A stretch of 64,000 nucleotides of DNA from assembly GCA_964500465.1 (NCBI GenBank), contig CAZCNB010000003.1, forward strand, positions 13,882 through 77,881, read 5' to 3'. This document shows, in pieces, positions 31,863-43,750 of the stretch; the first letter of the stretch is position 1, and each line of letters opens with the position of its first letter. The stretch is from an uncultured Candidatus Saccharibacteria bacterium (GTDB taxonomy: Bacteria; Patescibacteriota; Minisyncoccia; Phycocordibacterales; UBA9973). Position numbers and translations under genes: made by a program. Under the pieces are notes generated by a model, which worked only from the letters and a program-made list of their open reading frames with translations, ran no database searches and had not been told where the DNA came from.

Positions 31863-33767
31863 CTATTGTATAACACGTTCTTGCCCAGGTTTAAAGTATG
31901 GGTCATCTCGTAATAATGTTGTAATAGGACCACGCTTACTTTTTACTGTTGTATTTGTAAACATGTCTGTACCAGAAAGATACACATCTTTCATAAGCTG
32001 TGGAACACTTCCGATTTGAGAACTTGAAGGAGAAAGTGATAGAGTAAACGTAACTTCACGATTTCCATCTATTCCAGTATTAGGTCTAACAGTTCCTATA
32101 TCCCATAGAACTTCGTGTGTGACATCATTGTAAGACACTTTTTCTTTACCATCTCCAACAGCTCCTACCCATCTAATATATATAGGTAGAGAAGATCTAG
32201 CTTGAGCTTGATTTATGGTATTAGCTGAATTTGAAAGTGTCCAGGTTACATTATATCTTGTTTCATTTTCAGCTTTTGGTGGAATAGGACCTGACAGAGC
32301 CGATGCAGATGATGCAATCTGGAAATCCGAAGTTAACTTAACAATCTTTTTTGTAAAATCATCTACACTACTTGAAGAACCTTCAGAAGGTTGTTTACCT
32401 CTAATACTTACTTGTAATACCACTTGCGGTTCTTTAATAGAATTACGAGAACCGACAAGAGAGACCGGTTTAAAATTAAATCCAACAACACCACTTGCTC
32501 CTGGCTCTATAGAAGCAAGTTCTGGAATAGTATTTTTATCCCAAACAATCTGATTATTTGCAGAGTCATAGAACCCTTCAAGTGGATTTACTTCACTTTT
32601 ATCAAAAACATTCCCAGAAAATCCTAAGATGATTTGAGCATCAGTTATTCGAGTTTGTAAGTTATTTGACCAAGCAATTTCTCCATCAACTTGTTCACCT
32701 CCTGAAGCTGTATATGTAGGCAGATCTTGGCCACCAACCAAAATACGAGCTTCTAAGAATGGCTTAGTAAGTGATATTGTTTTCAAGAGTGAGTTATAAA
32801 CAACATTTACTACAGATTGATCACTAGGGCTTGTAGTACCAGCATAAACATGGAAAACTTGTTCATCACCATCTTGACCTATCAAACGCCCTTTTATATC
32901 TATAGAAATAGGATTAGTTTGAGTTAACCCATCAAGGTTCCATATAGTATTACCAAAAGAAGGAGCTGGGGTTGCACTTTCAAAGGCAAAGTTATTTGGA
33001 TATGTTACCTGAAGCATAGTTGCACCTTCTGGAAGAGTAGTATTTAACGTTACTTTTACCTTAAAAGAAATAACCTGATCCGAAGTAGCTGTATCTGGAG
33101 CTTCTACGATTAGTGAAAGTGGGGCGGAGCTTATTGATACAGGGTAATCTTTTTCTTTTGCAAATATTGCATTTGATCCCTCTGGATGATATTCGAGTGT
33201 AACCTTAATGTTTCTAATCGATTTTTCTTCTCCAAAAAGTGTAACTTTCTTACTAAGCGTTACACTTGAACCCTTTTTAATTAAACCAATATTTTCACGA
33301 GGAAGGCGGACCATATCGTTCGGATTATCACTTGCGCCACGTGGATATTCTACAACTAAGTTAGCAAGTTCCAAATTTGCATTGTTGCGATTTGTTATCT
33401 CTATCTGTAACGGTAATTCATCTCCCCCTTTTGTAAATGCATTACCTAAAACTTTTATATCGATATTTTCATTTGAAACAGACACTCCACCATTTAGAAA
33501 CATGTATGTAGAAAAAAGTATCGCTCCAATAAAGAATATTAGTGCAACAAAAAAGAATTTCTTAAACACAGAGGTATGAGGTTTTTTAGTAGAAGTATTT
33601 GGTAATGTATTATCAGAACTTTCAGATTCACCATGCCAACTAGTTGGTACTGGATGAGCAACAGGATGGAGAGTTCCTGCATGAGGACGATTAGTGACTT
33701 TATCTTCACGATCATAAAGTCTTCGCTTAATATCTTCTATTCGACTCCTATATTCATTTTCTGCCAT
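31863..33767 (-). CDS. hypothetical type-II membrane protein with large extracytoplasmic beta-rich domain
   Basis: A ~70-aa cytoplasmic N-terminus (charged, His/Pro-rich), one TM (FFFVALIFFIGAILFSTYMF), then ~540 aa rich in T/S/N/V with no motifs I recognise. Confidence 0.5.
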   Translation of the reverse strand: MAENEYRSRIEDIKRRLYDREDKVTNRPHAGTLHPVAHPVPTSWHGESESSDNTLPNTSTKKPHTSVFKKFFFVALIFFIGAILFSTYMFLNGGVSVSNENIDIKVLGNAFTKGGDELPLQIEITNRNNANLELANLVVEYPRGASDNPNDMVRLPRENIGLIKKGSSVTLSKKVTLFGEEKSIRNIKVTLEYHPEGSNAIFAKEKDYPVSISSAPLSLIVEAPDTATSDQVISFKVKVTLNTTLPEGATMLQVTYPNNFAFESATPAPSFGNTIWNLDGLTQTNPISIDIKGRLIGQDGDEQVFHVYAGTTSPSDQSVVNVVYNSLLKTISLTKPFLEARILVGGQDLPTYTASGGEQVDGEIAWSNNLQTRITDAQIILGFSGNVFDKSEVNPLEGFYDSANNQIVWDKNTIPELASIEPGASGVVGFNFKPVSLVGSRNSIKEPQVVLQVSIRGKQPSEGSSSSVDDFTKKIVKLTSDFQIASSASALSGPIPPKAENETRYNVTWTLSNSANTINQAQARSSLPIYIRWVGAVGDGKEKVSYNDVTHEVLWDIGTVRPNTGIDGNREVTFTLSLSPSSSQIGSVPQLMKDVYLSGTDMFTNTTVKSKRGPITTLLRDDPYFKPGQERVIQ

Positions 33768-33798: not shown

Positions 33799-34383
33799 TT
33801 AAAGACCGCTCTCACTCATAGCCTTGTTTATATAGGCTATTATAGATTTACGCTCCCTTAGAAGGCTTTCGACTTTGATTTTCTCGAAAGGAAGCGATAA
33901 GTACTCGCCTAATATATCAGATTCGCCCACATACCCAAGTGTGTTCATAATTCGCAAAACTAAATGTAGTTCTAGTGCTTCCCTTTTTTCAATAGAAATT
34001 TGCTCATCATCCATCAGATATAGAGATTGAATGAAGTCATCAAAAATTTTCTCATTTGATTCTTCTCCATCACAAAGTCTTTCTATAAGTTTACTAATCC
34101 GAGCAATAAGAAGAATTGATTGCTTATCTCTACGAGCGTAGGAAAATGAATTAATATTACTTGCAGAAGTAACTCTCCAAAGATCCCTACCCCGTACAAG
34201 ATCTACTTTTACATATGAAAAATCTTGCAAAGCAAAGCGGAGTTTTGACTTGTTGAGTCTTACACCTTGTGCGGCGCACCTGATCAACCCCATCTCACGA
34301 GTATAAATTGATAGCATCTTATTAGCCTCACCCATATTGCGAGAACCTAATATAAAACCATGAGTGTGATAAATATGGTGCAT
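33799..34383 (-). CDS. recO: DNA repair protein RecO (short form)
   Basis: N-terminal OB-fold pattern (THGFILGSRNMGEANKMLSIYTREMGLIRCAAQGVR...LQDFSYVKVDL). Confidence 0.6.
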   Translation of the reverse strand: MHHIYHTHGFILGSRNMGEANKMLSIYTREMGLIRCAAQGVRLNKSKLRFALQDFSYVKVDLVRGRDLWRVTSASNINSFSYARRDKQSILLIARISKLIERLCDGEESNEKIFDDFIQSLYLMDDEQISIEKREALELHLVLRIMNTLGYVGESDILGEYLSLPFEKIKVESLLRERKSIIAYINKAMSESGL

Positions 34384-34955
34384 TATTCTTTTATCATTTT
34401 TAATAAAGCTTCTAATGCTTCTGGAAGTTCATACCAACCAGAAGAACCGTTTAGATGTCCACCATTTTTTATTGGTATAAGTTGACAAGATAAATTTCTT
34501 GAAAGTTCTTGTGCTTGTTCGAAAGGTACGGCTGTATCATTATCGCCATGAATCACAAAAAAATTATTGCATATTTTTTTTATATGTTCATAATTAAACT
34601 CTTTTTCATAGAAGTGATTTATTGGGATATATCTATCTTTGCCTGGAATTGGATGTATTATCCCTGAAACCAAAACAGCACCACCAATTTTTAATTCAGG
34701 ATATAATGTCTCTAAATAATTTAAAACAGCAGGAACTCCAAGAGAATGCCCAACCAAATATACATCTTCACTCGGAATTCCAATACTATTTTTTATTGTT
34801 TCAACCCATTCATCTTTGATTGGTTTTTCATCTATCATTGGCATAGCAAGAGCGCATGCCCATATTTCTTCACGCGCAAGCTTCCCCATCAACCAAGGTC
34901 TCCAACCTCCATTTGGTTCTCCTCCATAACCATGTATCAAAAATACCTTTTTCAT
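34383..34955 (-). CDS. alpha/beta-hydrolase, YdeN/RBBP9-like serine hydrolase
   Basis: VFLIHGYGGEPNGGWRPWL, nucleophile elbow VGHSLG, C-terminal D...H. Confidence 0.7.
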   Translation of the reverse strand: MKKVFLIHGYGGEPNGGWRPWLMGKLAREEIWACALAMPMIDEKPIKDEWVETIKNSIGIPSEDVYLVGHSLGVPAVLNYLETLYPELKIGGAVLVSGIIHPIPGKDRYIPINHFYEKEFNYEHIKKICNNFFVIHGDNDTAVPFEQAQELSRNLSCQLIPIKNGGHLNGSSGWYELPEALEALLKMIKE

Positions 34956-35344
34956 AAACTTGTTTTAAGAAAATTATCTAATTCTTCTAGATCTTTTTTA
35001 TTTTCATCATATAAGTAACTATTAATACCGGCTAATTGAGCACTTTTTACTGCTTCTATGTCATGCTCAAAATAGATTACATCTTCTGGTTTCAAGTTGT
35101 ATTCTGCAAGAAAAATTTCAAAATATTTTGGGTCAATTTTATCTGGATTATGCTTAAGTGTAAAAAACTCGTATGGCAGATTATTTAAACCATATAACTC
35201 AAATTTATCATCACTTGCATTAGTAAGAACTATCTTTTTATTTGGATACTTTTCTAATAATTCATACATGTTATTATTAAGCTCAAATTTATCTCCAACT
35301 TTTAAAATAAAAGTATATACTGCATCTACTAATATTATCTTCAT
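34952..35344 (-). CDS. HAD-superfamily-like small protein with degenerate motif I
   Basis: MKIILVDAVYT (DxV instead of DxD), KIVLTNAS, K, EHDIEAVKSAQLAG. Probably an inactive or divergent paralog of the neighbouring HAD gene. Confidence 0.4.
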   Translation of the reverse strand: MKIILVDAVYTFILKVGDKFELNNNMYELLEKYPNKKIVLTNASDDKFELYGLNNLPYEFFTLKHNPDKIDPKYFEIFLAEYNLKPEDVIYFEHDIEAVKSAQLAGINSYLYDENKKDLEELDNFLKTSL

Positions 35345-35345
35345 T

Positions 35346-35969
35346 CTATGATTTTAACACATTTTCTATAGCTTGAACCAACTCTCCTGGATTATCGATA
35401 ATAGCCATTGGTCTCCCTTTTTCCATATGTTTACTACTATGTAATCCCCAAGTTACACCTATTGAAGATATATTACATTCATTGGCTTCTTTTATGTCTC
35501 CCAAGGTATCAGTAATAAAAATACAATCTTGTGGTAATGCTTTATATTGATCTAAAATCATACCAATTTTAATTACCTTACTTTTATGTATATCCGCACC
35601 ATATATATCCGAGAAAAAATCAAGAGTTTTCTCTCTTTCTAAAAAACTTTTTATAAAATCACTCCTAGTAGAAGAAACAATAACTAGGGTGTAATTTTCT
35701 GATAGGGTTTTTATAGAATTAAAAAGTGATTCATGTATATTGGTTTTTTCTAGATTATTCTGGTACTGTTCATAAAAATCTTTTGGGTGAATATGCTCAC
35801 CTTTTGTAACTGCATTATTGTATCCATCATGAAAATTTCCATTAGATAATGCTTGAAAAGATTCCCAAGAAAAATCTGGATTTACATCCTTGTGGATTTT
35901 ATATGAGTACTCAATAGTATTTGCAAGTACCCCATCAAAATCAAACATCACTATTTTTTTATTTTTCAT
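35346..35969 (-). CDS. HAD-superfamily phosphatase
   Basis: Motif I FDFDGVL, motif II VIVSST, and the motif III/IV region FITDTLGDIKEA. Confidence 0.8.
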   Translation of the reverse strand: MKNKKIVMFDFDGVLANTIEYSYKIHKDVNPDFSWESFQALSNGNFHDGYNNAVTKGEHIHPKDFYEQYQNNLEKTNIHESLFNSIKTLSENYTLVIVSSTRSDFIKSFLEREKTLDFFSDIYGADIHKSKVIKIGMILDQYKALPQDCIFITDTLGDIKEANECNISSIGVTWGLHSSKHMEKGRPMAIIDNPGELVQAIENVLKS

Positions 35970-35970
35970 C

Positions 35971-38900
35971 TTAAGATATTGTTATAGTAAAGATCAGTTC
36001 ATCGATCTTTACTTCTACCCCACTATTTTCAGCTATATCAATCCGCTCTGCGCCTACAATTTTCAAAAGTTCGTCTTTCCAAGTATTGATCAAATCCTGT
36101 CCATCTACACTTGTTGCAATTTTTAGAGTTACTACATCGCTTGGATTTAACCCTTTTTCTTTTCGCATATCTTGAATAGCTCTTATGAGTTCACGATATT
36201 GTCCCTCTTTTTTCAAATCAAGAGTTATATGAGCATCCAACACAACAGGACCATCTATAGATTCATTATAAATAACTTCTTTTATATTTAACTCATCTTT
36301 AACAATCTCTACAAAAGGGTCATTCAAAACATAGCTCTTTACGCTTAGAGACTTTAAGGGTTGGCGAACTTTGATACCTGCTTTCTGACGAGCTTCAAGC
36401 CCTAGGGTTACCACATGACGAACGATACTCATTTCTGAAATTATATTTTCATCAATCTGCTCTACCTTAGGCCAATCTGAAAGGTGCACACTTTCAACAT
36501 CTTTACTATTTTTTAACTTTTGCCAAATACTCTCTGCTATAAAAGGAGTAAACGGAGCCATAAGTTTAACTGTTGTTTTTATAACTTTATATAAAGTTTC
36601 TTTTGCATCCTTATCTCCATCTTTTAATCTTTCTCTTGAGCGACGAAGATACCATGTAGAAAGATCTTCTATAAATAGATCAAACGGTCTTGTGGAAAGT
36701 GACATGTCATACATTTCCATATTTTTTGTAACTTCGTCTATAAGTTGTCCTAATCGAGCATTTATCCATCTGTCCAAAACATTTTCACTTTTACTTTCTC
36801 CACTATTCTCAAAATTAGTATCTCGATACAATTCGTAGAATGTTACTACGTTTTCAAAGCGAGAAATTATTTTACTTGCAATATCTTGGACTGATTTTTC
36901 AGAGAAATTTACATCTTCCCCTTTCATTACAGGACAAGACATTAAGTAGAAACGTAGTGCGTCTACCCCATATTTATCGAAAAGTATCCATGGATCAGGA
37001 AAATTGTTTTTAGATTTAGACATTTTCTGACCATCTTCAGCCAAAATTGTTCCAGTTGTAACAATATTTTCAAATGGTGCTTTTCCAAACAAAATAGTTG
37101 AAATTGTGTGAGTATAGTAAAACCATGTCCTCGTCTGAGCTATATATTCTGCCACAAATCCTGCTGGGAAATTGGTTTTTTGCCAATCTTCCCTTTCGAA
37201 TGGGAAATGATCTTGAGCGAAAGGCATTGAACCAGATTCAAACCAACAGTCTATAACCTCAGGAATACGGTAATATTCTTCTCCATCTTTTTCAATAGGG
37301 ACAAAATCAATATACGGCCTATGAAAATCTAGATCGTAGTCTTTGTTATGAGGAAAATACGTAAAAGGCAATTCTTGTACTTGCGCATTATTAAGATAGT
37401 TGTAATTCTCTTTATTTCTGATTAGTTCAAGCGTCTCTTCTATGCTAAATAAAGATGCGCCAGCTATCATAAGCCATGCGGGGCCTCCATGGGTAACTAT
37501 TAGAATTTTTTTATTTTTATATTGTTCTTCAAGTTGGAATAAAAAACTCATCGCTCGGCGCTTAACATCTAGATAAGACTCGTTCCCCTCTGGAGCATTT
37601 GCAAAATTTTCAACTGTTTTTGGATAAAGAGTATGATACTCTGCCCATGTACGACCTTCATACATAGGTAGAGATATCTCATGAAGTCGATCATCGAGAA
37701 TTATTTGCTCATCAGATAGACCTAAAATATCTTGAACTATTTTTGTTGTTTCCCTTGTACGATTAAACGGAGAAGTAATTATAAGATCTATGCCTTTATC
37801 TTTCATATCAAGAGCACTGGCGCGCACTTGTTCTTGTCCTTTTTCTGTAAGGTGACTACCGCTGTTTGTAACAGTATTTACAACATTTTTTACATTATGA
37901 TTTGTCTCACCATGGCGCATCACAAAATAAGTATTGCCAGATTTTTTGGTATGAGCTTTTAATTCTTCATTAGATTTTATAAACAAAATTTCACCAGCCT
38001 TATTTTTCCAAATAGGAAGTGGGCTTGCCCAATAACGATTACGGGATATAGTCCAATCTGGAGCACTTTCCATGGTATTTTTGAATCTGCCTTCTTTTAA
38101 GTGAGATGGTATCCAATTCATGGATTTGGCACTTGAAAGCATTTCATCTTTTGATTTTTGAATATTCACAAACCACGAAGGAAGTGCGTAGTACAAAAGT
38201 GGCGTATCGCATCTATAACAATGAGGATATGAGTGTATTATTTTTTCTTTTGCAAAAAGAGCACCTGCGTGAGCAAGGTATTTGATAATGGCTATATCAG
38301 TAGATTGATGATCTTCTTTTGGCTTTGCTTTCATTCCTATAAAATCTGTGACAATATTTGAAAACACTCCATTGTGTTCAACATGGCGTATAAAAGATAT
38401 ATGATTCTCTTCCGCGAGTTTCATGTCTTCTTCTCCGAATGCTGGAGCTTCATGAGCAATACCTGTTCCTTTATCTATAGTTACAAAATCGGCATGCCAA
38501 ACTCTCCATATATTATTTTTACCCGGAATATCAATATCTTTGTAATAAGTAAACACTGGCTCATATGTAAGACCTGTAAGCTCATGCCCTTCAACTTTTT
38601 TTACAAATTCTGGATTTACAAACTTATCTTTTAACTTTTCATATGATTCAGGAGTTAAAATCAATATTTCTTTTCCAGTTTCAGGGGTATGAGATATAAA
38701 TACGTAAGAAAGATTATTGTTTACTGCGATTGCGGTATTGCCTGGTAGTGTCCATGGAGTCGTGGTCCAAGCCAAAAGATATGTTGGAATTTCAGAATCT
38801 ATATTTAATTTAAATTTTACATAAACAGATATATCTGTTATATCTTTATAGCTGTTATCCATAGCAATTTCAGAATTTGCTATTGGTGTCTCACAACGTG

Positions 38901-39483
38901 GACAATATGCGAGAACCCTAACACCTTCATATAGAAGACCTTTTTTATTCATTTCACCAAGCGCCCACCATACACTCTCTATAAAAGAGTTATCCATTGT
39001 TTTGTAAGAATTTTCAAAATCAACCCAGCGACCGATTCGATCTACTGTTTTTTTCCATTCAGAAACATATGTTAAAACTTTACTACGAGCATGCTCAGTG
39101 AATTTTTCAACACCAAACTTTTCTATTTCCTTTTTACCAGAAATACCTAGATCTTTTTCCACTATATTCTCAATAGGTAATCCATGACAATCCCAACCCC
39201 AACGACGTGGTACTCTGAAACCTCTCATAGTCTGATAGCGACCAATAACATCTTTGGCAGTGGAACCAAGTATGTGACCATAGTGAGGAAGTCCAGTTGC
39301 AAATGGTGGTCCATCGTAGAAAACGTAATTTCCTTTTGGAGCATCTTTATCTAAACTTTTTTTGAAAGTATCATTCTCCTTCCAGAAATTTAAAATTTCT
39401 TCTTCGCGAATTGCAATGGAAGATTTTTTATTATCTATTTCTTTTGAATATCCTTTTGTTGGTTTTTCTTCGTTTCCTTGCAT
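35971..39483 (-). CDS. ileS: isoleucyl-tRNA synthetase, type 2 (eukaryote/archaeal-like), carrying an inserted histidine-phosphatase (PGAM-like) domain
   Basis: YDGPPFATGLPHYGHIL (HIGH region), a CP1 editing domain, WTISRNRYWASPLPIW, IDCWFESGSMPFAQ, and KMSKSKNN. Between the ISRNRYW segment and CWFESG lies ~170 aa with RHGET...SPFNRTRETT...VTHGG. The ORF-track start 39558 overlaps the leader terminator; ATG 39483 is the likely start. Confidence 0.85.
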   Translation of the reverse strand: MQGNEEKPTKGYSKEIDNKKSSIAIREEEILNFWKENDTFKKSLDKDAPKGNYVFYDGPPFATGLPHYGHILGSTAKDVIGRYQTMRGFRVPRRWGWDCHGLPIENIVEKDLGISGKKEIEKFGVEKFTEHARSKVLTYVSEWKKTVDRIGRWVDFENSYKTMDNSFIESVWWALGEMNKKGLLYEGVRVLAYCPRCETPIANSEIAMDNSYKDITDISVYVKFKLNIDSEIPTYLLAWTTTPWTLPGNTAIAVNNNLSYVFISHTPETGKEILILTPESYEKLKDKFVNPEFVKKVEGHELTGLTYEPVFTYYKDIDIPGKNNIWRVWHADFVTIDKGTGIAHEAPAFGEEDMKLAEENHISFIRHVEHNGVFSNIVTDFIGMKAKPKEDHQSTDIAIIKYLAHAGALFAKEKIIHSYPHCYRCDTPLLYYALPSWFVNIQKSKDEMLSSAKSMNWIPSHLKEGRFKNTMESAPDWTISRNRYWASPLPIWKNKAGEILFIKSNEELKAHTKKSGNTYFVMRHGETNHNVKNVVNTVTNSGSHLTEKGQEQVRASALDMKDKGIDLIITSPFNRTRETTKIVQDILGLSDEQIILDDRLHEISLPMYEGRTWAEYHTLYPKTVENFANAPEGNESYLDVKRRAMSFLFQLEEQYKNKKILIVTHGGPAWLMIAGASLFSIEETLELIRNKENYNYLNNAQVQELPFTYFPHNKDYDLDFHRPYIDFVPIEKDGEEYYRIPEVIDCWFESGSMPFAQDHFPFEREDWQKTNFPAGFVAEYIAQTRTWFYYTHTISTILFGKAPFENIVTTGTILAEDGQKMSKSKNNFPDPWILFDKYGVDALRFYLMSCPVMKGEDVNFSEKSVQDIASKIISRFENVVTFYELYRDTNFENSGESKSENVLDRWINARLGQLIDEVTKNMEMYDMSLSTRPFDLFIEDLSTWYLRRSRERLKDGDKDAKETLYKVIKTTVKLMAPFTPFIAESIWQKLKNSKDVESVHLSDWPKVEQIDENIISEMSIVRHVVTLGLEARQKAGIKVRQPLKSLSVKSYVLNDPFVEIVKDELNIKEVIYNESIDGPVVLDAHITLDLKKEGQYRELIRAIQDMRKEKGLNPSDVVTLKIATSVDGQDLINTWKDELLKIVGAERIDIAENSGVEVKIDELIFTITIS

Positions 39484-39700
39484 ATATAAAATAAAAACTC
39501 GTCCGCGTACAACAATTATAATAATTGCTATACAAGGACGAGTTTCTCGTGGTACCACCTTGCTTACTTCTCATTTTGTAGGGCTCTACTTCCAAAAAGG
39601 TTTCTTCCCCAAGCTCCAGAGTGATATCTCTTTCATCGCTTATATTTAAAGATTACTATATAAAACACATTTTTGCAAAGCTTGCATTTTATTTATCAAA
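39484..39700 (-). promoter_or_regulatory. T-box riboswitch leader of ileS (antiterminator, terminator, upstream stem region)
   Basis: On the mRNA strand the antiterminator reads CAAGG-UGGUACC-ACGAG-AAA-CUCGU-CCUUG, with the 7-nt bulge UGGUACC inside the T-box sequence AAGCAAGGUGGUACCACGAG. An overlapping terminator AAACUCGUCC...GGACGAGUUUUUAUUUU ends ~8 nt before the ATG. The upstream leader contains GAUAUCA, a candidate AUC specifier. Confidence 0.75.
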
Positions 39701-40123
39701 TATATAATATGAATTTGACATTGTAACTTACCTGAGGGGCTAACTAATATTTACAGTTTCCACTGTTTTGTGAAGTCGGTGAAAACGGAACGTGCTCACA
39801 CCGAAACTACATAAAAATTAATTTAGTACACCTCTAGGGAGACAATGGGCCAATGACCTGAGGAAGGTTATTGGCTCTATTTTTTTACTTGCATTATTTC
39901 TAAAAAGAAGTAGTATACAAACCAAGCTGAACCTTCTCCTGTTTTTAGGTGAATATGAAGGGTTATCCTAATGCAGTCTATGATCTCGGAAAAGTCCTTC
40001 GCAATGAAAAACCGAGGTATCTACTTGCATAGATTGTCTCCTAAAGACAATGTGCTCAGCCAGATGCTACATTGGCCCGGTGATGCGTACCCAAAAAGTA
40101 CGTTGACCCGGGCATTTTTTATT

Positions 40124-41848
40124 TTACATTTTCTCTGGAGTTTTTACTCCTAGGAGGTAGAGACCATTTTTCATAGTTTGGTAAAATGCTTCAACTATAG
40201 ATATACGATATGGAGCAAAAGGATCATTTTTATTTACTATAATAGTGTTACCATAGAAAGTATTAAACGCGCTTGCAAGCTCAGTTAGATATGTAGATAT
40301 GTGATGAGGTTCAAGAGTAAGATAAGATCTTTCTACGATTTCAGGGAATTGGTAAATCATTTTCTCAAGATTTGTAATTTCTATTGGTACATCTTTGTAT
40401 GATACACAAATACCTTCTAATTCCCCTTTTTTGATAATAGAATTTGCTCGGACTGCTGTGTATTGAAGATATGGACCAGAATCTCCTTCAAAAGATATAG
40501 ACTTTTCAAAATCATAAATAATATCCGAACCAAGTGAAGATTTAAGAATTGAATATTTTAGAGCTGATACTCCTACAATTTCAGATATTTCTTTTTTCTC
40601 TTCATCATTTAGTTCACGATCTTTTACTTTTTCATAAACTACTTCCATAGAATCATTTAATAGGGATTCACCTGTAACAACATTACCCTTTCTTGAAGAC
40701 ATCTTGCCCGAAGCAAGGCGCATCATCCCGTGAGTAATATGCTTCATGCGAGATTCATAATCAGGGTGAATAAGTGATACTGCTTTTTGAACAACTTTCA
40801 TATACTCACCTTGCTCTATTGCCGTCGTGATGATAGAAATATCTGGATTTTCTTTTTCAAATTTAGTAACAGTCAATCCAACTTCTTTTGTTTCATAGAG
40901 TGGTATCCCAAGTGAAGTGATAAATACACGGGTATGTAACTTGGGGTCATAGTTCTCTGCGTGAAATACAATAGCACCATCACTCTCTGTAAATACATTG
41001 CCAATATTTTCTCGGACAATTTTTTCTCCTATTGGAGCCATTTCACTTTCGAAGAAATAGTAGTTAAACTTTGTACCTAATTTCTTGTATATTTCTTCAA
41101 ATGCACGGAGTGTAATATCTCGACCCCAATCATATATTTTATTTATCTCATTATCAGATCTACTGTAGACTTTTTTGTTTATTTCATCGATTTGTATTTT
41201 AATAGCTTCACTATCTTCATATGCAGTTGCACCTTTTGAATAACATTCCCCTATCCAAAGAGCAAGTTCACTTGCAGGATCTGTTTTTAAAATATTTTCA
41301 TTATATGCTCCATCAGAAAGCCAAAGAATCCCATAAATAGCTTTTGCAACATGTAGGCCTACATCCCCTTGGTAATTTGCACGCACAGTATTTGCACCAG
41401 AGTATTCGACAATTCTAGAAATAGACTCGCCAATTGCGTTACTCATGAGGTGGCCAATATGAAAAGGTTTGAAAGGATTTGGCTGAGTATATTCAACCAT
41501 TACTTTTTTGCCAGATAAAAGATTATTATTTCCCCAGTTTTCTTTTTGTTTAAGAACTTCTTTTATACTATCTACAAAAAACTCATGTGATAAATAGAAA
41601 TTTATAAAACCAGCACCAGCAACTTCTATCTTTGATATTTCTTTTAGATTCTCTTTTTCAATTTCAGTTTTAATCTTTTCAGCAAGTTCTCTTGGACTTG
41701 TTCCTAGTTTTTTGGCATGTGCCATAGCAACATTGGTCGAATAATCACCATTATTTAAATCAGCTGGATGTTCAAGCGAAACATTCTGGGCTTCTATCCC
41801 AAGATTGCTTAAAGCATTTTTTATTAAAATTTCTATCTTTCTTTTCAT
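40124..41848 (-). CDS. argS: arginyl-tRNA synthetase
   Basis: HIGH region (PFHIGHLMSNAIG), catalytic core, C-terminal DALR anticodon-binding domain. The ORF track starts at 41890, overlapping dut; ATG 41848 abuts the dut stop. Confidence 0.9.
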   Translation of the reverse strand: MKRKIEILIKNALSNLGIEAQNVSLEHPADLNNGDYSTNVAMAHAKKLGTSPRELAEKIKTEIEKENLKEISKIEVAGAGFINFYLSHEFFVDSIKEVLKQKENWGNNNLLSGKKVMVEYTQPNPFKPFHIGHLMSNAIGESISRIVEYSGANTVRANYQGDVGLHVAKAIYGILWLSDGAYNENILKTDPASELALWIGECYSKGATAYEDSEAIKIQIDEINKKVYSRSDNEINKIYDWGRDITLRAFEEIYKKLGTKFNYYFFESEMAPIGEKIVRENIGNVFTESDGAIVFHAENYDPKLHTRVFITSLGIPLYETKEVGLTVTKFEKENPDISIITTAIEQGEYMKVVQKAVSLIHPDYESRMKHITHGMMRLASGKMSSRKGNVVTGESLLNDSMEVVYEKVKDRELNDEEKKEISEIVGVSALKYSILKSSLGSDIIYDFEKSISFEGDSGPYLQYTAVRANSIIKKGELEGICVSYKDVPIEITNLEKMIYQFPEIVERSYLTLEPHHISTYLTELASAFNTFYGNTIIVNKNDPFAPYRISIVEAFYQTMKNGLYLLGVKTPEKM

Positions 41849-41849
41849 A

Positions 41850-42278
41850 TTATTTATGACCAGTTGAACCAAAGCCTCCTCTGCTCTCATCTTTCATTTT
41901 ATCAACTTCTTCCCACTCTCCTATATCTACTCTTACAAAAGCGCCTTGGCCGATTCGTTCACCTTTTTCTATCTTAACATCATTGTCAGTCAAATTATAA
42001 ACCTGTAACAAAATCTCATCTTGCTCACCATGGTAATCGTTGTCTATATATCCAGTAGTCACAAGTAAACCCTTTTTCTTTAGAGTACTAGAGCGATCTT
42101 TTATCTCAAGCATATAACCTTTTGGAATTTCAATTATTACATTAGTAGGCAATCTCTCTAATCCTCTTGGCTTGATTACAGCATCAACACGTGAGTATAA
42201 ATCAAAAGCAACAGCACCAGATGTCTGATATTCAGGTAGTGGTAATGTATTATCGATTCTTTTAATATTTACTTTCAT
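41850..42278 (-). CDS. dut: dUTP pyrophosphatase
   Basis: Five dUTPase motifs, including the C-terminal RGGFGSTG. Confidence 0.9.
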   Translation of the reverse strand: MKVNIKRIDNTLPLPEYQTSGAVAFDLYSRVDAVIKPRGLERLPTNVIIEIPKGYMLEIKDRSSTLKKKGLLVTTGYIDNDYHGEQDEILLQVYNLTDNDVKIEKGERIGQGAFVRVDIGEWEEVDKMKDESRGGFGSTGHK

Positions 42279-42769
42279 TTTATTTCTAAAAAGAATTCTT
42301 TTAATAATTCTAGCGCATGAACGAAATCCTCTGGTTTTGTGTTAAGTAAGTTTTTTAATTCTTCTTTTGAAAACCACTTTACTTGCTCGAGTTCATTTTC
42401 TTGAATCTTAAATTTTGTATCCTTGGATATTTGCAGATTGTAAAAATAACAAAATTTGCTACCAGTTCGTGAGGTGTATAAAATTTTTTTAATTGGTTTG
42501 AGCGTAACACCTGTAATACCTAATTCTTCTTCTAATTCTTTATATGCATTGCTTTCATAAGTTTCCCCTTCTTCTACAGTACCTGCAACCCCAGGGCCCC
42601 ACAAACCAGGACTATGTTTCTTCTTAAATGATCTTTGAGCCATCAATATATTGTCGTTTCCATCTGTAATCCAAATAGCAGTAATGCGAACAATTTCGCC
42701 AGCTATTACATCATTTCTATCTTTATATTCTATTACTTCATCTTGATCATTTACTATCGGAATCTTCAT
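42275..42769 (-). CDS. NUDIX hydrolase
   Basis: Nudix box GTVEEGETYESNAYKELEEELGI. Confidence 0.8.
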   Translation of the reverse strand: MKIPIVNDQDEVIEYKDRNDVIAGEIVRITAIWITDGNDNILMAQRSFKKKHSPGLWGPGVAGTVEEGETYESNAYKELEEELGITGVTLKPIKKILYTSRTGSKFCYFYNLQISKDTKFKIQENELEQVKWFSKEELKNLLNTKPEDFVHALELLKEFFLEIK

Positions 42770-42805
42770 TAAATAAATATATCATGAATAGAGCTGTGAG
42801 TTTAT

Positions 42806-42834
42806 TTGACACAGTAGGTTTTAAATGATATAAT
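42806..42834 (+). promoter_or_regulatory. consensus sigma70-type promoter (TTGACA-17-TGnTATAAT) on the plus strand
   Basis: TTGACA 42806-42811, a 17-nt spacer, TG at 42826-42827, TATAAT 42829-42834. Confidence 0.6.
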
Positions 42835-42907
42835 GTAAAGAAATTTTTTATTGTTTTCCAAAGAAGATAGAAATCTGTCTTTTTCGGTAAAAAATAAAGA
42901 ATCTGTT

Positions 42908-43021
42908 ATGGGAAGAGTAAAAACAAAAGCCCGTTTAGATGCCGACCAAGATGGCTCTCGCCGTCGTAATGGATACACTCCGTATCCAAAAAAAATAAGG
43001 CACAGAAAGGGCAAGAGATGA
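42908..43021 (+). CDS. 37-aa highly basic peptide ORF (MGRVKTKARLDADQDGSRRRNGYTPYPKKIRHRKGKR), antisense context
   Basis: ATG 65 nt downstream of the consensus promoter, TGA stop, then a weak hairpin and a T-run (ggctagccgtaaggtaatgcctttt atttttt). Sits between convergently transcribed minus-strand tmk and NUDIX genes. No recognisable family. Confidence 0.35.
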   Translation: MGRVKTKARLDADQDGSRRRNGYTPYPKKIRHRKGKR

Positions 43022-43054
43022 CAACAATAGAGGCTAGCCGTAAGGTAATGCCTT

Positions 43055-43750
43055 TTATTTTTTAAGTAATATTTTCACTTTTTTATAAATTTCTTCGTGT
43101 ATATCTTCCCTAGTACGAACATTTTTACCGTCCGCACAATCTATTTTTTTAAAATATTTTAAAGTTTTTGAAAGCCATAGGGCGCTTTCACGAGAATTCT
43201 TTTGAAATTCTTTGTCAACTTCATGCACATCACTTCTACCCCCAGTATAGTTTCTCTTAGAGGTTGCATTTCTTTCCTTCATCATTTTAATAGAGACTTC
43301 AAGTGGGACGGATAAATATAAAACTACATCTGGTCTAGGGATTTTAAAAACTTTATGCTCCATAATATCGAGCCACTTTATAAATTCAGCTCTCTTTTTT
43401 GCATTTTTTATTTTTCCTCCTTGGTGAATTTGATTTGCAGAAACATATCTATTTGCAATTACCAGATACCCTTTCGCAAGCCAACCTTCGATCTCTTTTG
43501 ATGATTCCCATCTGTCAGCGGCGTAGAGTACCGATGCAATCTTTGGATGAACTTTTACAAAATTATAATATTGCTCAGAAAGGCAGTGGCCAATAAACTT
43601 ACCGAAAAAGTTTTTATAATATTCTGGAAAATCTACATTCTTTATTTTATATCCTTCCTTCTTTAGTCTTTCAGAAAGTAGAGCAACCTGTGTAGCTTTA
43701 CCACTTCCATCTGTACCATCTATAACTATAAATTTCCCCTTTTTTACCAT
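43055..43750 (-). CDS. tmk: thymidylate (dTMP) kinase
   Basis: P-loop FIVIDGTDGSGKATQ, DRW motif region (AADRWESS), LID. Confidence 0.85.
   Translation of the reverse strand: MVKKGKFIVIDGTDGSGKATQVALLSERLKKEGYKIKNVDFPEYYKNFFGKFIGHCLSEQYYNFVKVHPKIASVLYAADRWESSKEIEGWLAKGYLVIANRYVSANQIHQGGKIKNAKKRAEFIKWLDIMEHKVFKIPRPDVVLYLSVPLEVSIKMMKERNATSKRNYTGGRSDVHEVDKEFQKNSRESALWLSKTLKYFKKIDCADGKNVRTREDIHEEIYKKVKILLKK

Follow-up and report, generated by a model that had tools for sequence, protein, structure and literature searches.

Class Ia aminoacyl-tRNA synthetases (aaRSs) are known to accommodate autonomous domains in the connective peptide (CP) loops of their Rossmann fold, as exemplified by the CP1 editing domain and the leucine-specific domain of LeuRS, and the nested catalytic domains known in these enzymes are deacylases that act on aminoacyl-tRNA. 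The isoleucyl-tRNA synthetase (IleRS) gene ileS on a 64,000-nucleotide stretch of contig CAZCNB010000003.1 (assembly GCA_964500465.1, positions 13,882 to 77,881; the whole stretch is called the window in the following) likewise encodes an autonomous domain within such a loop, in this case a phosphoryl-transfer enzyme of the histidine phosphatase superfamily, which is unrelated to the deacylases. The host synthetase is the housekeeping type-2 IleRS of an ultra-small bacterium of the candidate phyla radiation (CPR; class Paceibacteria), and what is new is that the nested accessory domain of an aaRS is a conserved and, judged from its sequence, apparently active phosphatase.

On the side of the host, the closest described enzymes are the type-2 IleRSs of P. 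megaterium (8c8u) and T. thermophilus (1ile), which share with the window protein the domain order HUP (with HYGH and KMSKS), CP1 editing (with WTTTPWT), CP2, anticodon-binding helical domain and DUF5915. Compared with 8c8u, however, the window IleRS has ~197 extra residues at residue 477 of the P. megaterium enzyme (Pm 477), which make up an unrelated enzyme domain, and the CxxC...CxxC zinc ligands of CP2 are replaced by K/N/A and E/K/D. On the side of the insert, the closest systems are the branch-1 histidine phosphatases PhoE/YhfR of G. stearothermophilus (1ebb, 1h2e), PspA of H. thermophilus (4ij5), GpgP of M. tuberculosis (Rv2419c, 4qih) and HFP (9mmh), which resemble it in fold and size (~190-200 residues). 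The PhoE-type enzymes and the insert have the same catalytic set (RHG, Arg, Glu, His) at 21-27% identity, and as far as sequence and fold can tell the insert works like these broad-specificity phosphatases. PhoE, PspA, GpgP and HFP are free-standing soluble enzymes, whereas the insert is nested in a loop of another enzyme; unlike the PhoE-type enzymes, its subfamily has the signature HG.P.W and N.YF.[LM]RHG, and it scores below every curated NCBIfam threshold for a named function. Fusion of a branch-1 histidine phosphatase to another catalytic domain is known from the bifunctional RNase H/acid phosphatase family NF005567 (Rv2228c-type), to which the insert has its best match in NCBIfam (E=9e-24; score 84 versus a cut-off of 326), and from PFK-2/FBPase-2, but these are end-to-end fusions with a partner that is not an aaRS. 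An IleRS with an extra enzymatic domain has a curator precedent in NF040702 (ileS_w_GNAT), where the addition is a GNAT acetyltransferase-type domain that sits at another site in Gracilibacteria and Peregrinibacteria (site B, see below). As a name for the window protein, ileS_w_GNAT was rejected (315.7 versus 1999; no GNAT match in Pfam).

An earlier reading of the window, made from the letters alone (in the following the sequence-only reading), knew of no aaRS with an embedded module of this type. This holds for the literature: no description of a phosphatase-containing aaRS was found in a full-text search that covered mostly texts outside subscription papers, and a survey from 2026 of 96,219 IleRS sequences mentions neither phosphatase, GNAT nor Patescibacteria (bioRxiv 10.64898/2026.02.03.703510). 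It does not hold for the public sequence databases, in which such proteins are abundant; the automatic JGI annotation names some of them 'isoleucyl-tRNA synthetase/phosphohistidine phosphatase SixA...', and some as IleRS/SixA/GNAT or ValRS/PhoE fusions.

The host synthetase and the point of insertion

The ileS gene extends over positions 35971..39483 on the minus strand and encodes 1170 amino acids followed by the stop codon. The frame is continuous from the ATG at 39483, as the sequence-only reading had proposed, although with 1171 residues. The uninterrupted open reading frame (ORF) could be extended to a GTG (35971..39558), but the ATG is the real start because homologues begin at MQGxEEKP and because a T-box-like leader with its terminator overlaps the GTG extension. 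In the NCBIfam scan the ileS equivalog TIGR00392 scores 833.8 bits (cut-off 621.4) and matches in two stretches. Similarly, Pfam reports tRNA-synt_1 (E=2.8e-125) in two stretches, with a His_Phos_1 match between them, as well as Anticodon_1 and DUF5915. The best-ranked relatives in the PDB are the type-2 enzyme 8c8u (E=3.9e-213, versus 1.3e-86 for the type-1 IleRS 1ffy), the yeast and human cytoplasmic IleRSs and T. thermophilus 1ile. Every defining feature that was looked at identifies the host by its sequence as a type-2 (eukaryote-like) IleRS, with DUF5915 (corresponding to ARD2/ARD3) at the C-terminus and without the C-terminal zinc-binding domain; the domain definitions were taken from PMC10485003 and bioRxiv 10.64898/2026.02.03.703510.

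Residues 1-511 (37951..39483, minus strand like all IleRS segments given here) align to residues 2-477 of 8c8u and run from the initial half of the catalytic HUP/Rossmann fold through CP1, which contains the editing domain, into the CP2 knuckle, of which they include the first half. Residues 709-1170 (35974..37359) comprise the second half of the knuckle, the second half of the HUP fold and the anticodon-recognition domains (Anticodon_1, DUF5915), and align to residues 477-932. As the sequence-only reading had claimed, the synthetase motifs on both sides of the insert are intact: HYGH (residues 67-70, 39274-39285) in the first half of the HUP fold, WTTTPWT (residues 239-245, 38749-38769) in the editing domain and KMSKS (residues 820-824, 37012-37026) in the second half of the HUP fold all occupy alignment columns that are invariant or nearly so. 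EVIDCWFESG (residues 742-751) belongs to this second half as well.

More precisely, the alignment pairs query residues 14-511 with Pm 2-477 and 709-1153 with Pm 477-932. As both flanks meet at Pm 477, the ~197 residues between them constitute a single-point insertion. In 8c8u this point lies between 'vweCegCq' and 'ltCpvCsge', that is, in the loop of a CxxC...CxxC zinc knuckle, and since the HUP core comprises Pm 40-168 and 513-632 (PMC10485003), the knuckle belongs to CP2. The two halves of the knuckle correspond in the window protein to residues ~490-511 (37951-38016) and, with HRPYID included, to residues 709-741 (37261-37359). The sequence-only reading had assumed that a linker of ~70 residues normally occupies this position; it is instead the zinc knuckle, all four cysteines of which are lost in the window IleRS (WKNKAGE and IEKDGEE, residues 492-497 and 729-735, at ~37993-38010 and 37279-37299). 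The inserted module, consisting of linker KKSGN, His_Phos_1 fold and return linker to FxPxPHN, spans residues 512-708 (37360..37950) and is absent from 8c8u. It had been correctly located at 37414-37929 (~170 residues) and is slightly larger than proposed. The junctions read ...KKSGN/TYF... and ...PHN/KDY...

Fold, active site and conservation of the nested domain

What kind of enzyme is the insert? In the whole protein, Pfam His_Phos_1 (PF00300) matches residues 520-683 (37435..37926) with E=1.1e-34 over profile positions 2-165 of 194. The segment 37414-37929 alone reaches E=3e-36 and 125.4 bits, far above the cut-off of 21.7, so that the proposal of a histidine phosphatase domain inside a type-2 IleRS is borne out. 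The motifs RHGET (residues 523-527), SPFNRTRETT and VTHGG were mapped to the places where they had been read. The RHG triad (37909..37917) contains R523, the catalytic nucleophile H524 and G525; the second phosphate-binding arginine R575 (37759..37761) lies within SPFNRTRET (residues 571-579); E602 (37678..37680), the presumed general acid/base, lies within LHEISLPMYEG and pairs in the alignment to 1ebb with the Glu in 'lrEi' of PhoE; the second active-site histidine H665 (37489..37491) lies within VTHGG (residues 663-667). A full-length AlphaFold model built with 50 sequences is of moderate quality (predicted local distance difference test, pLDDT, 76.9; predicted template modelling score, pTM, 0.62), with pLDDT 86-95 and the expected strand/helix pattern in the insert region, including a strand at residues 518-523 with RHG at its end. 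Modelled alone, the domain reaches pLDDT 91.5 and pTM 0.90, and its best Foldseek matches are PhoE 1h2e, PspA 4ij6, GpgP Rv2419c 4qih and the riboflavin-pathway enzyme HFP 9mmh (TM score ~0.75, probability 1.0). The sequence search agrees, with a phmmer match to PhoE at E=4e-13. In the models, the insert thus folds independently and confidently as a PhoE-like domain. Taken together, profile score, motifs and the predicted alpha/beta fold of the dPGM/PhoE type assign the insert to branch 1 of the histidine phosphatase superfamily.

The sequence-only reading had called the module PGAM-like, which is appropriate at the level of the superfamily and fails at the thresholds of the individual families. 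Rejected in NCBIfam were dPGM and GpmB (dPGM_arch 75 versus 225; GpmB 54.7 versus 261; pgm_1 26.2 versus 81.7), the alpha-ribazole phosphatase CobC (TIGR03162, 83.6 versus 162.9), the phosphoserine phosphatases PspA and phosphoserine phosphatase 1 (NF045917, 53.4 versus 350; NF009994, 72.5 versus 277) and the phosphohistidine phosphatase SixA (TIGR00249, 34.4 versus 74.5 bits, matching residues 2-72 only). The histidine phosphatase superfamily includes the protein phosphatases SixA, PGAM5 and Sts-1. The nested domain might hence act on proteins, in cis or on partners, by reversing an inhibition of the synthetase through phosphorylation, such as might be caused by aaRS-targeting kinase toxins of the HipA type, or by acting on phospho-His proteins as SixA does. 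Kinase domains do co-occur in some IleRSs, and the JGI pipeline uses the name of SixA for some of these proteins; however, the SixA model fails, with a match confined to the N-terminal 70 residues, and fold and cap resemble those of metabolite phosphatases, which makes a protein phosphatase highly unlikely.

Conservation was followed in two sets of relatives. All 120 closest homologues (61-100% identity, 1145-1232 residues, from NCBI, JGI, ENA and Logan, named as Paceibacterota, Parcubacteria, Nomurabacteria or Patescibacteria) carry PF00300. A scan of one genome per species gave 143 relatives, and the best 80 of the 143, among them Parcubacteria RAAC4_OD1_1, Taylorbacteria, Zambryskiibacteriota, Paceibacteria and Nomurabacteria, all cover both junctions and the insert at 40-91% identity. 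Residues and lengths were counted in the 74 full sequences among these species-level relatives, in which the insert is 189-204 residues long. R523, H524, G525, S571, R575, R643 and H665 are invariant in 74/74, so that the catalytic His and Arg, whose presence had been made a touchstone of the proposal, are not only there but conserved across species, and position 602 is Glu in 73 and Asp in the remaining one. The insert is retained across a whole class-level clade. It evolves faster than its host, with a mean identity to 118 homologues of ~47% as compared with 76% for residues 1-511 and 67% for the second synthetase flank. Nevertheless, the ratio of nonsynonymous to synonymous substitution rates (dN/dS) against the closest relative is 0.045 for the insert and 0.049 and 0.069 for the flanks, values that are approximate because dS is ~1.5 and thus near saturation even for this relative (a comparison with locus L010, seemingly misaligned, was left out). 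Approximately, then, the insert appears to be under the same purifying selection as the synthetase core. Since the phosphatase keeps R523, H524, R575, E602 and H665 under such selection, the IleRS protein is predicted to carry two independent active sites, that of the synthetase and a putative one of the phosphatase.

Alternatively, the insert could be a catalytically silent structural or regulatory module, either a folding scaffold that replaces the lost zinc knuckle or a sensor of a phospho-ligand. The four knuckle cysteines are indeed missing from the window IleRS as well as from most relatives, and the linker residues KKSGN and PHN are highly conserved among homologues. A scaffold would not need the five catalytic residues, though, which are invariant or nearly so over deep divergence. 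Moreover, 6-7 of the 74 relatives keep cysteines at the knuckle positions 494 and 731 and still have the insert, so that loss of zinc binding came after the insertion and was no prerequisite for it, and other lineages place the domain at sites unrelated to the knuckle, which is intact there. A silent module is therefore extremely unlikely.

A further concern with metagenome-type sequence such as the window is that the architecture could result from an assembly chimera, a pseudogene or an intein-like selfish element, the more so as some related IleRSs bear in-frame IS200-type transposase and Vsr-like endonuclease domains. That related genomes share the insertion excludes the assembly chimera, against which the sequence-only reading had suggested checks: NCBI, JGI, ENA and Logan together provide hundreds of independent assemblies with the identical architecture, and G+C content and skew show no anomaly at the insert in the profile from 33 to 42 kb of the window. 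In addition, the reading frame is uninterrupted, with a low dN/dS. An intein was rejected for the window IleRS as there is no Hint/intein match in Pfam, no Cys/Ser/Thr splice-junction residue and no endonuclease domain. The probability that any such artefact accounts for the insert is negligible. A further check that had been proposed, whether the insert folds as an independent domain, likewise came out in favor of the proposal.

Phosphatases within and beside class Ia synthetase genes

The window protein is one instance of a wider pattern, in which the phosphatase occupies several insertion sites, occurs in several copies per protein, has ValRS as a further host and also exists in the form of adjacent stand-alone genes. 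A search with the insert alone against 1.84 billion representative proteins yielded 10,510 matches at E<=1e-3 and 974 at E<=1e-10. Among the best 150 representatives, 99 have flanks matching the window IleRS, many of them gene fragments and a few ValRSs, and 51 have no such flanks. Two proteins found in this way, P0170 (1419 residues) and P0210 (1379 residues), have an intact zinc knuckle, no insert at the site used in the window and two His_Phos domains elsewhere, the first after ...CWFESGSMPYAS... and the second downstream of both KMSKS and the stem-contact fold, where the anticodon-binding domain begins. When ~120 homologues of P0170, assigned by name to Gracilibacteria, Peregrinibacteria or Peribacteria, were mapped on the residue numbering of the window protein, recurrent His_Phos sites became apparent: site A, that of the window protein, between ~495-511 and 709-716; site A' between ~726 and 737; site B, that of the first domain of P0170 and P0210, between ~764 and 770; and site C, that of the second, between ~888 and 898. 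The number of His_Phos copies per IleRS in Gracilibacteria and Peregrinibacteria is 1-3, over at least four sites, and P0221 is an IleRS with three. Every phosphatase site thus falls in the stretch from residue ~495 to residue ~898, which surrounds the second half of the catalytic fold. An N-terminal fusion of phosphatase and IleRS was not seen among the mapped homologues, though the gene order of phosphatase followed by ileS would make one trivial. The set of His_Phos-bearing IleRSs comprises P0170, P0210, P0221 and P0279-P0389, as well as P0274 (locus L081, 10001-14260).

Site B can also be occupied by other domains, namely GNAT (P0319), Ser_hydrolase (P0329) or two HAD domains (P0339), and GNAT often accompanies His_Phos in the IleRSs of Gracilibacteria and Peregrinibacteria. 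Further in-frame additions were observed in IleRSs of the CPR: an IS200/REP-type Y1 tyrosine transposase within the CP1/editing region (residues 326-475 of P0247 and 336-482 of P0361), and in other proteins Vsr-like endonuclease (PF04480) or P-loop kinase (AAA_33, Zeta_toxin-like) domains. These Y1, Vsr-like and kinase additions may represent either chimeric proteins or gene calling across insertions.

Moreover, the host is not always IleRS. P0278 is a bona fide ValRS (948 bits versus 704) with one His_Phos domain, P0127 is a ValRS fragment with four, so that the copy number in ValRS ranges from one to at least four, and ~35 of the 120 closest ValRS relatives (P0395-P0513, named Magasanikbacteria or Patescibacteria) bear His_Phos and are interleaved with insert-free ones. 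Beyond the synthetases, the best 150 representatives include just two further fusion partners, namely TsaC/Sua5 (threonylcarbamoyl-AMP synthase; P0189, 387 residues), in which the SGNxYF linker of the IleRS insert recurs, and ATP sulfurylase (P0248, 568 residues). Essentially all 407 related domains examined, at every site, have RH[GA], the exceptions being N-terminally truncated fragments and one KHG. In a neighbor-joining tree the domains group by site, with stand-alone proteins interspersed among the site-A domains; the tree, which was crudely built from BLOSUM distances over 183 columns and lacks support values, was used for coarse clustering by site only. The clustering by site points to few separate capture events followed by vertical descent.

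Where do the captured domains come from? Nine stand-alone representatives of ~190-205 residues that align over their full length with the insert were looked up, of which eight were informative, one contig being too short. Among the close relatives, with 34-41% identity, the stand-alone phosphatase gene lies in 5/8 cases (P0159, P0187, P0163, P0205 and P0173) directly beside an insert-free ileS, usually between argS and ileS. At the P0159 locus the order is argS, phosphatase, ileS (938 residues), x, recO, with an overlap of 10 nt between phosphatase gene and ileS; the P0173 gene follows argS and is convergent with ileS; and P0266, situated after argS and before a truncated gene, is a probable sixth case. 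The coordinates of the stand-alone phosphatase genes are 5001-5582 in L085-L087, 4001-4573 in L089, 477-1091 in L082, 2107-2679 in L088 and 671-1258 in L091. As the closest stand-alone proteins mostly abut ileS, the subfamily closest to the insert can be regarded as an IleRS-linked phosphatase that occurs either as neighboring gene or nested. We infer that the module descends from a phosphatase gene directly upstream of ileS in insert-free relatives and was captured into IleRS loops several times.

In the window itself, ileS is part of a same-strand gene string in which stops and starts abut or overlap, in the order argS, ileS with the phosphatase, HAD, short HAD-like ORF, Ser_hydrolase, recO and an ORF of 634 amino acids; all genes mentioned in this paragraph are on the minus strand. 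The order argS-ileS-recO-(634-aa ORF) is kept in most of 80 related loci. The argS gene for ArgRS (40124..41890; Pfam tRNA-synt_1d, DALR_1, Arg_tRNA_synt_N) is the upstream neighbor in 60/80 loci. Downstream, the HAD-family phosphatase gene (35346..35969; PF13419, E=3e-19) begins 2 nt past the ileS stop, leaving one spacer base, and is weakly similar to phosphoglycolate phosphatase and PpaX, both below the cut-offs. It is followed by a short HAD-IA-like ORF of 130 amino acids (34952..35344; TIGR01509, 31.1 bits versus a cut-off of 29.4) and by the Ser_hydrolase gene (34383..34955; PF06821, E=1.8e-23). The HAD and Ser_hydrolase families are those that are fused into IleRS in other CPR lineages (P0339, P0329). 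As an obligatory partner the HAD gene was rejected; it is found downstream of ileS in 17/80 loci, the Ser_hydrolase gene in 25/80 and the short HAD-like ORF in 3/80, so that they are recurrent only. The 634-aa ORF (31863-33767) has no Pfam or NCBIfam match, follows recO in 62/80 related loci, and its counterpart in other loci shows faint DUF7619. Upstream of argS, a nucleotide-housekeeping cluster of dUTPase, NUDIX and thymidylate kinase genes (41850-43750) was noted, in which the dUTPase start overlaps the argS end. No second IleRS, second His_Phos domain or family-I pyrophosphatase motif is present in the 64-kb window, which is a small part of the genome.

The 640-bp spacer between argS and ileS (39484-40123) contains a candidate T-box leader (39487-39645, minus strand), whose match to Rfam RF00230 (39531-39645; 46 bits, E=7e-9) stays below the gathering score of 93. 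Stem I is ultrashort, and its loop AUAUCA includes the Ile codon AUC as specifier candidate; the leader also has the T-box sequence AAGGUGGUACCACGAG, and in the predicted fold it ends in a strong terminator hairpin and U-run just before the ATG at 39483. A single copy of the T-box core motif GGTGGYACCRCG precedes ileS by ~30-190 nt in 45 of the 91 fetched loci. Such a leader fits a housekeeping IleRS that responds to the charging of tRNAIle. The other ~480 nt of the spacer show strong structure as well (z=-4.6 for the whole spacer).

Possible roles in tRNA charging

What could a phosphatase do inside a synthetase? From the sequence evidence it seems, on balance, somewhat probable that the nested domain acts as a phosphomonoesterase and is tied in function to class Ia synthetases. 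The proposed chemistry follows from the established mechanism of the superfamily: H524 would attack the terminal phosphoryl group of the substrate, giving a phospho-His524 intermediate, while R523 and R575 would hold the substrate phosphate; E602 as general acid/base would protonate the leaving group, assisted by H665, and the phospho-enzyme would then be hydrolysed. The phosphatase would partner the synthetase in function, beyond mere co-expression, as suggested by the conserved neighborhood, the repeated internal fusion, the multiple copies, ValRS as host and the interchange with HAD at site B; the two HAD domains of P0339 at this site suggest that phosphatase activity and no single fold is what is retained. 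The substrate would be a small phosphorylated product or by-product of the synthetic site. Our best guess is pyrophosphate (PPi) or a nucleotide phosphate, with the phosphorylated acceptor end of the tRNA as main alternative. Given the coupling, we favor a small molecule such as PPi over the tRNA end, because the closest structural matches are phosphatases of small metabolites whose cap is similar in size, and PPi or a nucleotide in particular because the partners TsaC and ATP sulfurylase, like aaRSs, form an adenylate and release PPi.

More tentatively, the nested phosphatase may possibly be a part of the class Ia charging cycle in the CPR, serving either as a product-removing pyrophosphatase or nucleotidase or in the repair of acceptor ends blocked by 3'-phosphate or pyrophosphate. 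In the former case a pyrophosphatase or nucleotidase of the histidine phosphatase type would pull adenylate formation in cells of minimal metabolism. In the latter case 3'-phosphate or pyrophosphate would be cleared before aminoacylation, as an intrinsic counter-measure against tRNA-targeting toxins.

Several observations weigh against a functional coupling of this kind. To our knowledge, PPi hydrolysis is no established activity of branch-1 histidine phosphatases, and every aaRS and polymerase makes PPi, so that PPi removal offers no obvious explanation for a specific link to IleRS and ValRS. The TsaC and ATP sulfurylase fusions are two cases only. The gain of GNAT, P-loop kinase, Vsr-like endonuclease and IS200-type transposase domains may mean that the pattern in part reflects a permissive, insertion-prone gene. 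In ValRS the insert is patchy and thus dispensable, as proteins with and without it share ~80-88% core identity. Furthermore, more distant stand-alone relatives lie away from ileS, P0249 near DsbD and EF-G, and P0256 overlapping a ROK kinase gene.

Could co-expression alone explain the association? An operon-mate phosphatase of the housekeeping or metabolite-repair type would then have been fused into tolerant surface loops by neutral rearrangement in the streamlined genomes of the CPR, and it would act on some unrelated metabolite, for instance phosphoserine, phosphoglycolate or a sugar phosphate, with no mechanistic link to aminoacylation. This would agree with the patchiness in ValRS, with the accretion of unrelated domains by CPR IleRSs, with the metabolite phosphatases being the nearest solved relatives, with the translational coupling of a distant stand-alone relative to a ROK sugar kinase and with the variability of the HAD and Ser_hydrolase neighbors. 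It is harder to reconcile with the recurrent capture at no fewer than four internal sites, in 1-3 copies and also in a second class Ia synthetase, with the lack of a simple N-terminal fusion despite favorable gene order, with the position of the closest stand-alone genes mostly next to ileS and with the retention of the insert over a class-level clade at a dN/dS of ~0.05. Co-expression without functional coupling thus is a possible but doubtful explanation.

The alternative substrate, the tRNA, leads to a function in end-healing or defense against toxins. The phosphatase would remove 3'-phosphate, phosphate derived from 2',3'-cyclic ends or 3'-pyrophosphate from the CCA end, with the synthetase as tRNA-binding platform, and the blocked ends would be left by ribotoxins or installed by toxic enzymes of the RelA/SpoT type. 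The hosts bind tRNA and the phosphatase sites cluster around the catalytic half. Kinase and phosphatase are the classic pair of RNA end-healing, as in T4 Pnkp and other RNA-repair enzymes, and some related IleRSs have P-loop kinase (AAA_33, Zeta_toxin-like) and HAD phosphatase domains. In addition, the best NCBIfam match of the insert is to the RNase H fusion family NF005567, although below its cut-off, and the TsaC fusion with the shared linker belongs to the tRNA t6A pathway. On the other hand, the PhoE-like cap would be typical of enzymes for small molecules, in contrast to the open site of SixA and Sts, which act on macromolecules, the ATP sulfurylase fusion has no link to tRNA, and it is hard to explain why the need for end-healing should be confined to the Ile and Val systems. 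We know of no nucleic acid substrate established for branch-1 histidine phosphatases. A role in end-healing is therefore rather unlikely.

The favored reading, a phosphatase functionally coupled to the synthetase, points to an undescribed link between tRNA charging and phosphatase action across many CPR lineages. The aaRSs are among the best-studied enzymes, and a conserved nested phosphoryl-transfer enzyme would add a new accessory chemistry to their repertoire. The recurrent capture also constitutes a natural experiment in domain insertion, with four permissive loops around a Rossmann-fold active site, and includes a case in which a whole domain has taken the place of a zinc knuckle. Should the substrate be PPi or a damaged tRNA end, the nested domain would represent a new way in which translation is coupled to metabolism or defense, and if it acts in product removal or end repair, a new catalytic function of aaRSs and a new substrate class for branch-1 histidine phosphatases. 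Finally, the domain offers a handle on the physiology of the Patescibacteria, which are largely uncultured and have minimal genomes.

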